This document shows, in pieces, positions 16,522 through 63,050 of a stretch of 64,000 nucleotides of DNA. Origin of the DNA: Sphyrna mokarran (Eukaryota); contig JAGIQG010000006.1 of the NCBI GenBank assembly GCA_024679065.1, positions 60,512,001-60,576,000 of the forward strand, read 5' to 3'. The notes below the pieces were generated by a model. It saw only the letters and a list, made by a program, of their open reading frames with translations. It was not told the origin of the DNA and did not search any database. Every line of letters begins with the position of its first letter. Position 1 is the first letter of the stretch. A program made the translations under genes and the position numbers.

Positions 16522-18720
16522 ATAGAATCATAAAGCGCAGAAAAGGTCCTTCAGTCCGTCAAGTCCGCACCAACATATTAGAAACACCTGAACTTTAATA
16601 TGCCTTTTCACTTCAGAGATCTGTGGACAAACACGCCAAGGTCTCTTTATTCCACAGAACTTCCTAATGTCTCACCAGTTATTGAATCCTTCCTTGCCAA
16701 ATTACTCCTTCCAAAGTGTATCACTTCACACTTTTCAAGATTAAATTCTATCTGCCACCAATCTGCCCATTTGACCATCCCATCAATATCTCCTTGTAGC
16801 CTAAGATACTTCACCTCACTGTTAACCATCCGGCCAATCTTTGTGACATCTGCAAGCTTACTAATCCTACCCACCACACCCCCCCCCCCCCCCCCCGCTG
16901 CCACATAGTCATCTATGTTGTTTATATAAATAATGAATAATAGGGGACTCAACACAGATCCCTGTGGTACATCACTGGACACTGGCTTCCAGTCTCTAAA
17001 GCAGTCTTCTGTCATCTCCCTCTGTCTCCTACAACTGAGTAAGAAGTCTCACAACACCAGGTTAAGGTCCAACAGTTTTATGTGGCAGCAAAAGCCCCTA
17101 GCTTTTGAAGCACTGCTTATCTGGTGAAGGAGAAGCATTTTGAAAGCTAGTGGCTTTTGCTACAAAATAAACCTGTTGGACTTTAACCTGGTGTTTTGAG
17201 AGTTCTTACGGTGTTTACCCCAGTCCAATGCCGGCATCTCCTCATTATCCTACAACTGAGCCAATTTTGAATCCATTTTATCAAATTACCTGCATCCTAT
17301 TGAATTTACCTTCTTTACAAGTCTTCCATGTGGGACTTTGTCAAAGCCTTTGCTGAAATCCATACAAACTACATTGACTCCACCATCCTCGTCTACACAT
17401 CTCCTCAAAAAAATGCAATCAGATTTGTTAGGCATGATCTTCCTGTGACAAAGCCACGCTGCCTATCCTTGATCAAGTTTTGCCTCTCCAAGTAAAGATA
17501 GATGCTCTTCTTCAGAACTTTCTCTAATAGTTTCTCTACCACTGACATGAGACTCACTGGTCTGTAATTCCTTGGTTTATCTCTACAACCCTTCTTAAAT
17601 AGTGGAATCACATTAGGTATTCTCCAGTTGTCTGGCACTTCTCCTCCATGGCCACCGAGGAATTGAAAATTTTGATTAGAGCCCCTGCAATCACCTTCCT
17701 TGCCTCCCACAGCAGCTTAAGACACAATTCATCTGGATCTGGAGCTTCATCCATTTTTAAGGCTGCCAACACCTCCAAAACCTTATCTTTCCCTGTGTTA
17801 ATTTGCTCAAGAACCTCACAGTCTCTCTCCCTGAATTCTATACCATTGTCCTCATTCTCTTGGGTGAAGATGGGTATGAAACATTCATTCAACATTACTA
17901 ATGTCCTCTGGTTCCATCCACAAATTGCCTCCTTCTTTCCTAATGGGTCCCACTCTTTCTCTGGTTATCCTCTTTCCATTGATATACTTATAGAATATCA
18001 CTACTTTATCAGCCAGAGCTTTCTCATATCTTTTTGCATTCTTTGCAATTGCTTTCTTAAACTCTACCCTGCACTTTCCATATCTCACAAATGCCCCTAA
18101 TGATTTGGTCCCCCTGTACTTTTTAAGTGTCTTTTTTTTCCTTGTAAATGTATCCTGAATATCCCTGATTATCCGTGGTTCTCTGGGCTTGTTATTCCTA
18201 CCTATCACCCTGGAGGGAATATGTTGGACTTGCAGCCTTTTTGAATGCTCCCCATTGCTCTTCTGTAGATTTTCCCATTAGTAGTCGTTCCCAGATTACC
18301 TTGGCCAGATCCCATCTTATTTTATTAAAATCTGCTCTCTCCCAACCTAAAACCTTTTTTGCAGCTTGTCTATTTCCTTGTCTATAACAAGTTTAAATTG
18401 TACTACGTTGTGATCACTACCACTAAAATGTTCCCCCTCTTCCCCTCACCACCTATCTGATTTCATTCCCCAGAATTAGGTCCAGCACAGCTCCTTCCCT
18501 TGTTTGACCCTTCATATATTGATTTAGTAAGTTCTCCTGTACACATTTCAAGAAATCTGCTCATCCAAGCCTTTAACACCATGTATAATTTAATGTTGGA
18601 AAAGTTGAAATTAGCTAATAAAATCACCTATTGTGCTTCACTGTCTATTCAATTGTCAGGAGGTGAAATTACAACTAAGCCTGAGGCTACCATCACCCAA
18701 TTTCCATTTACTTAAGACAT
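16522..18720 (-). mobile_element. CR1 LINE ORF2 (RT) fragment, degenerate
   Basis: ORF pieces NVIPLFKKGCRDKPRNYRPVSL, VPQGSVLSPLLFIIYIN, KWADWWQIEFNLEKCEVIHFG; frameshifted. Confidence 0.92.
17040..17247. mobile_element. Penelope-like palindromic element nested in CR1
   Basis: ~75-bp inverted arms; 13-bp direct repeat TCCTACAACTGAG at 17027-17039 and 17248-17260. Confidence 0.7.
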
Positions 18721-26852: not shown

Positions 26853-27745
26853 CTGCAATGAGACATTTACCAGAAAAACACTGTTCGTTCAATAGCCACA
26901 TAGTAAATCAATCCTTAAACACATTCTCTAAAGTTAGCTTCTTGTTCTGCTACTAAATAATTACTCCGTAATGACCCCTCATGCAGCTTGAGTATTCTCT
27001 CCCCTTCGCTTCCCTTACTCCTGTTAACACAGCCCCATGCAGAGGACCTTAGAGTACTGCAATGGTTCATATGTTGTGGCAGGCTCTGCTTGTCCTGCAA
27101 ACTTTCCCAGTCTTTTAGGCTTTTACTTTATCTGTCCCTCCGTCAGAAAATGATGGCCAATTAAGCAATGGAAAAAAAATTAACAAGATAAACTACTGCT
27201 AGTTCTATAAACAAAACATAACAAAGCAGCAATAAAAAGTCTAAACATTTTAGATTCTAGTCACGCTTGGAAACAGATGCATTGCTTTTGTTCATTGTAG
27301 CAGTTAATGTAGCCTAAGAAAAATCCTCAGAGATAGAACACTACTGACACAACGCAACAAGTTATATTTCTGAAGCACCTTTAATGTCAGAAAATGTCTC
27401 ATGGTACTTCACAGAGTCATTATAAAATTATGAGAATTATAAAACAGGTATGAGGCTTAACAATGTGAATTCAGAAATTCATTTTTCTGAAAATGCAAGT
27501 GCATACAATTTTTTTAAAATTTGAAGTAACAAGTACCGGAAGGAGAAAAAGAAGAAAGAAATGGTACATGCTTATCATGTGGTCTAGAAAATGTATTATG
27601 GGACCCCAGTAATATTACATTCGATCTGCACTGAAACAGCAGCCTTCAATTCATTGTAGTAATTTAAACAAGCAATGTAATTCCAAGATATTCATTCCAA
27701 TGAACCTTAATCTGACATCTCAAAGTCTCTCTAGAAAACACTTAC

Positions 27746-27963
27746 CTATTATAAGGGGTAGAAAATGTTGCTAGAATAACATCACGGCCTTTAATACGGA
27801 CAACGTTTGTCACTGACTGCAAGATGTTGAAGTAAAAGTGAGAGTCCCCAGGTACAGAACAGTTGAGACGGGCCTTCACGAAGGATGTCCACTGCTTCTC
27901 CAATACTCTTTGAGAACCTCCCATGTCATTTTTACAGACCCGGGCAACTCTTGGGAAAAGCAC
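27746..27963 (-). CDS. SEMA6A: SEMA6A exon 10, [16 protein letters not shown]...[15 protein letters not shown]...ATFSTPYN
   Basis: 218 nt; CAG acceptor, GTAAGT donor; KARLNCS motif. Confidence 0.98.
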
Positions 27964-29042
27964 CTGAAACAAAACGAAGGCAAGAGTTTTAAAATTCCTT
28001 TCAGCTCTGAAACAGTCAATTTCTGACCTTCAATACATCAGCTCACAATTAAAAATATTACATAAATTGAATCAAGTCTCCAGTGGGACAGCATAAGAGT
28101 TCACAGCTATGCTTAATCAAAGAGCGTTTTATGAATTATGCTTCTGAGGATTGCTGCAAATTATATTAACAATTTCTATTAATATTATCTGAAAAGATGT
28201 GACTAAAAGTTAGGTATTTCTCCTGAGATTTTTATTTCAGTGATCATGCACTGCAGGCTCAATATAGTGGATCAATTACTTTAAAAAAATACTGATCTTA
28301 AAATACCATTGTTAGAAATAATACTCTGCCTTTAAGAAATATATTTATATCATGTTTCTTAGAAGGGGTATGTTTAGAATTCAACTCTATTTACATTGTA
28401 CTGATCTGTCTGCAACAGGCAGCCCCATGCTAAGAATGCAGGCTAATAATTGATCTTACCTAATGGGGTAGCTGTTTTAATCTGAATTAATACATTTTTG
28501 ATTATGTCTGGTTTTTCCCCTGGGGTTTCAGATTACAGTATGATTAGATTGATTAACGGAGGTAGAGTCATGCGAACAGAAGGAATTGAGAATACAGGGA
28601 AAAGCAGATAGCTTTCTGCTTAGTCCTGAAAGAAATAAGAGGTATCTCTCCCTCTTTCTCTCTCTGCATCAGATTCTGTCAACACTCAGTCACTTTTTTG
28701 GAGAGTGGTGAGTTGCATACCAGTTCTGAGGGGAGCGGGGATAGTCAGCCGGCTGCAGAGAGCTTGGCTGCCGTTTTGCAAGGATGCACCGATCTCTCAG
28801 TGGACTAGGAAACCCCCCTCCCACCCTGACACAGACATTGTGCCCCCACACTCAACCCCCCCCAACCCTGATACAAGTCACCTGCATTAGGCCCTTCTGA
28901 TGGGTGCCCCTGCTGGATGATCAAAATGCCCCCATCATGGTTTCCTCCAAGATTCACATCTGCATAATCCCCCTTCGCATACTCACTCTCCCGCAACCCC
29001 CCCCCCCCCCCCCCCCTCCCCCCCCACCCCCGTCATAGCTCA

Positions 29043-29089
29043 CAGTGGACATCCTTTGTGAAGGCCCTTCTCAACTGTTCTGTACCTGG
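29043..29089 (+). repeat. Inverted duplicate of part of SEMA6A exon 10 (27848-27894)
   Basis: 45/47 identity to the reverse complement of 27848-27894, aligned by hand. Confidence 0.95.
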
Positions 29090-29200
29090 CAGCACTCCTG
29101 GCATATTGCCTGAGTGCCTGGTGGTCACTGTCAGGGTGCCTATTCGGCACCGCCCAGCCTTGCCCTTGACCCTCTAGGAGGCATCACTGGCCCTCCAAGG

Positions 29201-29268
29201 GCTTGTATAAATTATTACACACAAACTGAAGGCTGCTGTTAAGTGTAGGTTAAATATAATTTTACCGG
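29201..29268 (+). repeat. Inverted duplicate of part of intron 10 (27606-27673)
   Basis: About 54/69 aligned columns identical to the reverse complement, including the exact block tgaaggctgctgtt. Confidence 0.85.
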
Positions 29269-30164
29269 AGAACGTCTGAGAGACCCCATTTCTCTTGCCA
29301 TTAAAATTTTGGAGAAAATTTCTTCCTTTGTCATGCTATGCAGAGCTCATGGTTAATAGACAACAAAATATACAGATGTTGATATAACCATCAGACAGAA
29401 GCATGCTGTAAGGATGGCATTATTTTAAGGCATCTCTAATGAATTAGAAATTCTTATTACCAATTCTCAGGGCAAAAACAAATTAGGTATGAATGCTTTG
29501 TAATGTCATCCATTGCGTTAATGAGCACAGAAGTACTTCATCTTCCTTTCATTTACCCGTTAATGATATTACAAATCTGTTCCTTCTGATTCATATTTAC
29601 ATACCAGGGAAACAAGTTAATTCAATTCACTGTTGTTTTTTGAACACTGACAAAAATGAGCTATTTCAATTGTGGTCAGAGCCTTCTTCCTCTTCATTAC
29701 AGAAGTCCATGAGGATGCTGCAGCTCCTCAAGGTTGATATTTTAGTACAAACAGTAGTCAGCTAGTTTCAAATGTTGGAATTATTTTCATGTGGATTGCT
29801 TCATTTTCAGTATGCATCCAGTCCCAACTCAATCCCAGCCATCGCATAAGATTAACATTGACAACTAAACACACCAAACAGCCAAAGCAATATTACATCT
29901 GCAATCTTAGTGACTCTACTTGTGACTAATAAATAAACTTTAATTTTATTACAAAGTAATTGATTTTGGAGCATTATGGGATGCCCAAACAGCATGAAAG
30001 GTAATATATAAATGTAAGTTTTTTTCTGTAATATTATTTAAATGTAAGCAATATAGTTCTATGCAGTGAGAGGAATGTGTACATTTTCTGTAAGAAGCAT
30101 ACAAAGTATCTCAACAAAGGTAAATAAAATGATAGCAGGATACTAAAATTGTGATGTCAGAGTT

Positions 30165-55489: not shown

Positions 55490-55685
55490 CAACAGCTCCT
55501 AAACAGGCTGAACATTTGCATCATTGTATCTCTTCCCCTGCACTCTAGCCATGACTTTAACACTGCATTCTACACTCTCCCCTTTCCTTCTCTATATACG
55601 GTCTGTTTTGTCTGTATAGTGCACAAGAAGCAATACTTTTCACTGTATACAAACTCATGTGACAATAATAAATCAAGTCAAAAAA
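55490..55685 (+). mobile_element. Rex-like LINE 3' end
   Basis: Matches 43580-43724. Confidence 0.7.
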
Positions 55686-56825
55686 TTCCAAAGCTATTAA
55701 AATGGACTCAGCCTGTCTAGAAAACCTCAGAGACAATCACCTTGGTGGAGTGTGAATGGATCTTCTCTTGATCCATTCATAAAACATTCAATCATCTGTG
55801 TATTCAACGGGACGATGACCAAGCATTACATGTAATCACTTTGGACAATGGACTCTTGCTACATAAGAAATTCAGAACCTAATCCTGTAAACCACAGACT
55901 GGAATCAACTAGATATAACAATATTTGGGTAATTGGTCAGGTGGTGAGAAGGGAGCATGTGATGAACATAAAAGGAAGTTATTTGCTTCCAGAAATTGTT
56001 TTCTTCCAGGCCATAAGGAGAAGCAGATGAGACACTGAAGAGGTAAGACCCTGTGAGTGGCATACTCTCTCTTTCTCTTTATCCATCCTGCACGCCAGAG
56101 CCCTGTCTGCTGTCCAACCATCAAAATGATACAAGCATCACTTTACAAATTAACCCAGCAGCTGCTGTTTCAGAAGCAATGATTATCTAACAGTATCTTT
56201 AAACTACCTCGATGTCAAATCCCGAGGGACCTTTGAGCCCAATCTAAAACTATCCAAGTTATCAATCTACAAGATCTGCATATCACTAATTAATACTAGG
56301 CTTTAAAAATCTGCTTAATCTGACTCCCATGTGTGTGTGCGCGCATACGTGAGTCCATTAGTTAACATATGCATTAAAGTTGGAGTATTTTTATTATTTT
56401 CTTTAGCCTGGATGTTAAGTCCAATAACTATGATTCTTTTTCCTTTTAAAATGTTACAAGGAAACCTGTCTGTGTGTGCTTTTTATTGTCATGGCACATA
56501 AACATTTAAACACTCAATGAATTGAAATGTACATCCTTTAAAAACAATCCTGTTACAGTCAAGCACAGAGTGGGAAAAGAAAGGAGGCATTCTACTCTAG
56601 CTCACCTGACCTGTTAGTGAGGATCTGAAATCACTTGGTATCAGTGGTACTCCTGCAACACCAGTTATTCATCTTAATGTTATAAGGGCAAATACCTTTT
56701 CAAACCCAAATTTTGACATGATGGAAATCAATCTATAAAATTATACTCTGTGTGTGTTCTCTTATATCTTTCAGAATATGCTGAACGGAGTTCCCAATTG
56801 GCAGACACAGCGTGTGTGCATACTG

Positions 56826-62737: not shown

Positions 62738-63050
62738 AAATAAGAAGCCTCACGACACCAGGTTAAAGTTCAACAGGTTTATTTGCAATCACAAATTTTC
62801 GAAGCTGCTTCATTAAGTGAATGGAGGTCAGTTCACAAATACAGCATATATAGGCAAAGACACAATTGCAAGATAATTACAGATTGGAATGTGAAGAATA
62901 GTTGGAATGTGAGTTTTTACATTATTACGAAACTAACAGGAGTGGTCTACTTTAAGCAATAAGCTAGAAGGTAGGTATGTATAAGACACAAGTTGTTGAA
63001 GGACAAGAATCAATACAGCTTCAAGTGAAACCACCTGATGAAGGAGCCCA
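62738..63050. mobile_element. Penelope-like element remnant
   Basis: taagaagcctcacgacaccaggttaaagttcaacaggtttatt matches the 17040 arm; cacctgatgaaggagc near 63032. Confidence 0.65.

Follow-up and report, generated by a model that had tools for sequence, protein, structure and literature searches.

Templated insertions of the kind termed MMB-TI (Osia et al., 2021; PMC8421209) are, in the portions of that report drawn on here, short inserts copied from a nearby template, carried in the germline, with microhomology or interrupted microhomology at their junctions and a small loss at the recipient site. Among human germline templated insertions, microhomology was found at 138/155 and 135/148 junctions, and the yeast signature places the template within 100 bp (PMC8421209). 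A related process, outlined in excerpts of another study, is the four-point template switch (Löytynoja & Goldman, 2017; PMC5453318), in which a short stretch gives way to a reverse-complement copy, so that a new inverted repeat able to form RNA structure arises without selection; classical bacterial quasi-palindrome switching, by the same account, perfects an old repeat in register. According at least to its summary, one study finds short-range, orientation-reversing switches to be common in human and yeast (10.1101/2020.03.06.980458), and RNA hairpins arising by template switching have already been published (PMC8794818). Duplexes between an intron and a coding exon of the same gene are known from the excerpted accounts of GRIA2 Q/R (PMC3553965) and FLNA (PMC6900863), both of which hold a CAG glutamine codon in the duplex. 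The GRIA2 duplex is imperfect, edited and conserved across vertebrates, a shark sequence included, and that of FLNA is imperfect, edited, conserved in mammals and deletion-tested.

The locus described here lies within the window, by which is meant the whole 64,000-nucleotide stretch of Sphyrna mokarran DNA that was analysed. Comparison of the window with itself by blastn paired a 47-mer in intron 9 of a minus-strand gene with the reverse complement of part of exon 10 (E 2.7e-14; arms 1a and 1b in Table 1). On re-measurement the match given by the initial annotation stands, as does its spacing of ~1.15 kb with the intron copy upstream of the exon in the pre-mRNA: the exon source is 1148 bases from the copy, in the opposite orientation. 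The copy ends sharply, the 40 bases beyond each end being without similarity to the exon side, and exon 10 is the sole other match to the 47-mer in the 2.77-Gb genome. Both mismatches fall at CpGs of the exon, as had been noticed, but only one is a C>T change of the deamination type, the other being a G>T transversion. In the pre-mRNA duplex they give the one A-C and one A-G mismatch proposed earlier; the A is on the intron strand in both cases, where it is left unpaired, and both base pairs are abolished. Most probably, this inverted copy of exon 10 sequence took the place of 19 bases of a dispersed repeat, in this lineage, through a microhomology-mediated template switch during replication or repair; it likely has no selected function.

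Table 1. Position and strand of the features at the SEMA6A locus, and of unique local inverted pairs elsewhere in the sampled genome
Feature	Position	Strand	Remarks
Arm 1a, young inverted copy of an exon 10 segment	29043..29089	+	45/47; exon sense on +, antisense in pre-mRNA
Arm 1b, source in exon 10	27848..27894	-	Codons Q273 to G288 (window's own exon count)
SEMA6A exon 10, 218 nt	27746..27963	-	Exon mapping, protein match
Arm 2a, older inverted arm in intron 9	29201..29269	+	54/69 with 27606-27673; present in X2, X4, X9, X10, X15
Arm 2b in intron 10, 72 nt beyond exon 10 donor	27606..27673	-	No other match in genome
Right junction, 5-base microhomology CCTGG	29085..29089	+	Common to exon and pre-existing repeat
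Left junction, 6-base local repeat ending in CAG	29033..29045	+	X15 only; probable slip
Decayed, truncated, C-rich dispersed repeat; recipient of copy	28682..29200	.	
C-run beside copy	28986..29036	+	~10 bases longer than in one relative
227-base unique inverted pair	L061:68-294 and 1068-1292 (G000:C1215:60492068-60493292)		91%, 774 bases apart, two genome places
Other unique local inverted pairs	L144:2413-2560, L167:1133-1214, L132:7735-7776, L121:2988-3027, L067:2664-2704		83-89%, 366-1687 bases apart

Coding exons 2-11 of the minus-strand gene were mapped within the window, under a numbering taken from the initial annotation and from the human exon order. The best PDB match of the gene peptide is Semaphorin-6A (E 1.6e-40), with Semaphorin-6D at E 1.2e-29; judged by its sequence, the gene is a SEMA6A orthologue. 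At window 27881-27879 (minus strand) the exon has FVKAR, against FLKAR in solved Semaphorin-6A chains, and the valine codon is common to the relatives X15 and X16 of the runs described below, because their exon contigs differ from the copy at two places only. The early SEMA6A introns also hold a 172-base direct pair of 77% identity (43573-43744 and 55531-55701).

The polarity of the event was read from contigs of eight of the 24 runs listed, namely X1 (DNA of the same species), X22 (same species, presumed RNA) and six relatives (X2, X4, X9, X10, X15, X16). A contig of the orthologous intron was found in five of the six relatives, which share 0.17-0.20 of words, may be one clade and hence one comparison, and include none close enough to date the gain; X16, whose orthologous intron is without contig cover, was counted neither way. 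In all five (X2, X4, X9, X10, X15) the fit to the window begins at 29085 and includes arm 2a, and to the left of 29085 the contigs continue with letters that do not fit. Record 7 of X10 spans the insertion site with 69 letters against 105 in the window, 26 of the difference being owed to the insertion. A loose end of X15 matches the left flank of the window at 10/11 letters and then runs on with 19 C-rich letters against the 45 of the window. The 16-base junction of the relatives is present within four mismatches in 7 of the 28 copies of the repeat family in this genome (shuffled controls: mean 0.58, maximum 3, in 200 shuffles), and the junction of the window in 0/28. As the repeat family carries the relatives' junction, the relatives represent the old state and the copy, on the evidence of these alignments, is a gain in this lineage by which 19 bases of repeat were replaced.

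Template switching into a decayed repeat, suggested by the initial annotation, is supported by the contigs of the relatives, the junctions of the repeat family and the microhomology. The microhomology at the right junction is nevertheless the five nucleotides CCTGG and not the ACCTGG that had been proposed, because X15 has C before CCTGG; the earlier six bases came from a different position of the repeat. On the + strand, CCAGG occurs within 27001-29000 only at 27848. At the left junction, 29040-29045 repeats the letters that the relative has at 29033-29038, and its last three letters, CAG, also open the copy; in this one relative, the pattern points to a short slip with a 3-base microhomology.

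The Harbinger-like (PIF/Harbinger) identity proposed for the recipient repeat in the initial annotation was probed in two ways, which gave neither support for that label nor evidence against it. No DDE transposase family was found by Pfam in 59 open frames (17 of the window and 42 of the 79 repeat-locus frames), although a non-autonomous element would have none, and terminal inverted repeats with a 3-base target duplication gave no consistent ends in 29 repeat loci. Matches to RVT_1 and GIY-YIG were assigned, by position, to neighbouring elements. Between exon and copy, 28320-28570 is a very high-copy repeat with a summed contig depth of up to about 20,000, because of which the short-read contigs of all relatives examined are broken there. 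Elsewhere in the window, 17039-17105 and 17143-17209 form a 67-base hairpin (88%, 37-base loop) that matches 62741-62785 too and is likely, from its sequence pattern, to be a small palindromic dispersed element.

Contigs of the same species leave room for an artefact of assembly or polishing beside the C-run, which the copy adjoins: X1 yielded an exon contig and a contig from 29150, with 29028-29149 uncovered (96% of the run read, record filter applied). Such an artefact is nevertheless very unlikely, since the copy has two private differences from the exon contigs of X1, X15, X16 and X22, one of them a CpG transition, joins ancestral flanks by microhomology with a 19-base loss, and has comparable pairs of 83-91% identity that are frequent in the genome; the window is also without any N.

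A second inverted pair, absent from the initial annotation, connects intron 9 with intron 10 and encloses the arm 1 pair, the centres of the two nested pairs being 63 bases out of register. The 111 bases that separate arms 1a and 2a in intron 9 are part of the dispersed repeat and resemble the corresponding exon-intron sequence no more than shuffled letters do (score 14, shuffles 15 +/- 2). The start of arm 2a coincides with the end of the repeat-family likeness, as alignments stop at 29188-29200 in 21 of the 28 copies, and this coincidence suggests that arm 2a may likewise have been copied in at a broken repeat end. Arm 2 was also considered as two copies of a dispersed repeat, a reading that was dropped: a genome search gave no other match to it, it had no match in the flanks of the repeat family, and the relatives show single-contig depth there.

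The nested order is compatible with one event, and a single old inverted duplication could have made both arms, with arm 1 later lost from the relatives, which are perhaps one clade; the 19 letters of X15 end in CATCC, which is found in the copy too. We regard this as extremely unlikely, because the relatives hold the intact family motif (7/28 versus 0/28), which a deletion would not restore, because arm 1 is 96% alike and arm 2 only 78-85%, and because the stretch between the arms is repeat and does not resemble the corresponding exon-intron sequence. The same very low probability covers templating of arm 1 by pre-mRNA, whose polarity equals that of the proposed DNA template and which is indistinguishable from it here.

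The preferred reading, a template switch into the repeat, can be laid out step by step. The nascent minus strand, with arm 2a already copied, would stall in the repeat (the direction of synthesis is not readable from the sequence). Arm 2a, at that time ~85% or more complementary, would anneal to arm 2b where the sense strand of intron 10 was single-stranded; with the letters of the relatives, this DNA duplex has an energy of -47.8 kcal/mol. Pairing of arm 2 would keep the strand end near the exon and the only CCTGG of the neighbourhood, to which the strand end CCAGG would anneal with a register offset of 63 bases. Copying would then proceed over about 42 bases of exon 10, the strand would return via CAG with the 6-base slip, and 19 bases would be lost; both arms have decayed since. 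A guiding role of arm 2 is suggested by the nested geometry, the register offset of 63 bases and the finding that none of six background pairs has a second arm; we give it about an even chance. An unguided switch would yield an identical scar. The junction pattern does not discriminate between a replication switch, MMBIR and polymerase theta. Stalling at a G-quadruplex was considered as a trigger and dropped: for a minus-strand switch the G-run lies on the far side, and it was retained.

How common such copies are was estimated from 120 stretches of 10 kb on 11 contigs (20 adjoining the window and 100 elsewhere), together with the window. There were 211 inverted pairs within 5 kb, of which 199 had at least two matches elsewhere in the sampled DNA and were dropped as repeats. 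The remaining 12 comprised two in the window, two weak pairs (E 4.7e-5) and two with one match elsewhere, which were excluded, and six unique pairs outside the window (1.2 Mb, E <1e-5) of 41-227 bases, 83-91% alike and spaced by 366-1687 bases. A genome-wide check found exactly two places for 3/3 of the background pairs submitted to it. At E <0.001, a second arm was present in 0/6 of the background pairs; the L132 pair has a weak one at E 0.005. The L061 pair lies ~16 kb past the last SEMA6A coding stretch, which is a long one (L060:8445-7180). Unique local inverted copies thus occur at ~1 per 200 kb, or an estimated ~14,000 per genome (5,000-30,000), a figure that low-copy repeats left in would lower and the edges of the 10-kb stretches raise. 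Coding exons make up roughly 1% of such a genome, so about a hundred copies derived from exons would be expected. As a scar, the SEMA6A copy therefore carries little weight, some of these copies coming necessarily from exons. Nesting by chance was put at a rough 2 in 10,000 per event, or about 2.5 genome-wide, a post hoc figure with assumed windows.

The alignment of orthologous introns also allows the rate of change since insertion to be followed. The exon contigs of X1, X15, X16 and X22 each have two differences from the copy and show neither of its changes, which means that both changes arose in the copy; in X2 and X10 no difference was seen in the exon 47-mer among the rows listed (40 of 220). 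In the flanking intron, changes common to X2 and X10 against the window number 14 in 473 bases (3.0%) among the rows listed (40 of 220), with X10 at low depth. From this rate 1.2-1.4 changes are expected in the copy against the two seen, a count of low power that is compatible with weak selection. The intron 9 alignment, proposed earlier to date the copy and to look for compensatory changes, finds the copy absent from 5/5 informative relatives and shows no deficit of changes in it. Arm 2 has six common changes in 136 bases (4.4%) versus the 14 in 473 (Fisher p 0.41, same 40 of 220 rows). Its arms match at 57/68 positions with the letters of X2 and 58/68 with those of X10, compared with 54/69 in the window, and its RNA duplex has an energy of -66.6 kcal/mol in the window versus -79.6 with the relatives' letters; the pairing of arm 2 decayed in the same lineage that gained arm 1.

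CpG sites decay faster than average, which would shorten an age estimate made from the changes in the copy. At the epaulette shark mutation rate of 7e-10 per base per generation, as given in an excerpt of that study (PMC10587355), even the lower 95% bound of 0.24 changes in 47 corresponds to some 7 million generations, and the copy is hardly brand new. The description 'newly arisen', if taken to mean very recent, is not supported, given two changes in 47.

The consequences for the RNA were considered from predicted folds. The duplex that the initial annotation envisaged is predicted in a 1741-nt stretch of pre-mRNA, with an arm 1 energy of -87 kcal/mol and a mean pair probability of 0.95, and arm 2 pairs in the same predicted fold. 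The duplex holds eight exon adenosines, six of which would be recoding (Q273R, T275A, K279E, K279R, N283D, N283S), and N283S/D removes an N-C-S sequon. According to the portions consulted of one survey, editing across animals favours long duplexes that are nearly perfect, and hyper-editing, rare in coding regions, tracks long duplexes (PMC5625713). The copy could on these grounds be a lineage-specific editing-complementary sequence, now under selection, through which ADAR recodes exon 10 (Q273R, K279R/E, T275A, N283S/D). Against this, the copy is absent from five relatives, whereas the GRIA2 Q/R duplex is described as conserved in vertebrates (PMC3553965), there is no shortage of changes in the copy, and the A of the A-C mismatch belongs to the intron and not to the exon.

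The presumed RNA run bears on the same question. X22 gave one contig of 5744 bases that spans the 47-mer and continues in exon sequence to either side. Ahead of the 47-mer it has 1041 letters, of which the coding sequence would account for 816 bases; a spliced mRNA carrying a leader of ~225 bases would have this length, the kind of run being presumed. No A-to-I change was seen in exon 10 in this one contig, which has only the two known differences, contigs being prone to drop minority variants; this indicates that there was no majority edit in that sample. Selected recoding by ADAR is accordingly given little credence, and weak bystander A-to-I editing of the predicted duplex is possible. A search of the literature on SEMA6A editing or intron complementarity, SEMA6A skipping, the origin of editing-complementary sequences and shark editing, mostly at the level of titles and abstract openings, found nothing on this locus. 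A further version is distinctly improbable, namely that a de novo editing-complementary sequence arose in two steps, the old arm having steered the exon capture, with minority recoding of the Sema domain (Q273R, K279R, N283 sequon lost) confined to this shark lineage and to its neural tissue. If true, the birth of a recoding site could be dated and reconstructed, and the relatives would serve as natural knock-outs.

Splicing offers another functional reading: the arms could place the 3' splice site in a loop and flank exon 10, so that the exon is skipped and the transcript decays, or a cryptic donor could be provided by the new GT at 29085-29084. In the predicted fold the nested arms enclose acceptor and donor, loss of exon 10 from the mRNA would shift the frame and bring a stop nine codons on, and the CAG/GTACAG made by the insertion (29088-29080, minus strand) equals the real exon 11 donor AAG/GTACAC in consensus match. 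However, the splice sites lie outside both arms, the pairing of arm 2 has weakened in this lineage as given above, and its G-U count is without strand bias (6 versus 4). The new donor is also one of 15 among the 179 intron 9 GT sites with at least six of nine consensus matches, upstream acceptors are weak, 4/4 candidate pseudo-exons end in a stop, and the exon 10 sequence is retained in the presumed mRNA contig. A role in splicing is for these reasons highly unlikely. The editing or splicing element proposed in the initial annotation is thus not borne out: the copy is restricted to one lineage and decays at the neutral rate, and the presumed mRNA contig is without extra change. The copy is most likely real, lineage-restricted and neutral.

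Compared with the systems known so far, the shark copy shows, in its sequence, the features of germline microhomology-mediated templated insertion that were looked at, which would make it a kind of mutation already known. It resembles MMB-TI, in the parts of the report cited, in its short insert, nearby template, junction microhomology, small loss at the site and passage through the germline, and the microhomology at both of its ends fits the human germline templated insertions; it differs in the 1.15-kb distance to the template, in having a coding exon as source and in the older inverted arm that adjoins it (PMC8421209). With the four-point template switch, as excerpted, it shares the reverse-complement replacement of a short stretch, the new inverted repeat and an RNA structure without selection, although the shark event is of longer range, and in contrast to the bacterial quasi-palindromes its young arm is offset by 63 bases in register and lies 111 bases from the old one (PMC5453318). 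Because the states before and after can both be read, the event can be spelled out at single-base level. The position of the young arm next to the old one suggests that an inverted copy, once present, may seed others over kilobase distances; long exon-intron duplexes, from which recoding sites can form, could grow in this way without selection. Like GRIA2 Q/R (PMC3553965) and FLNA (PMC6900863), the shark gene carries an intron complement of its own coding exon with a CAG glutamine codon in the duplex; unlike them, going by the excerpted accounts, its copy is near-perfect, lineage-restricted, placed upstream of the exon and decaying neutrally, in a duplex that is a prediction.
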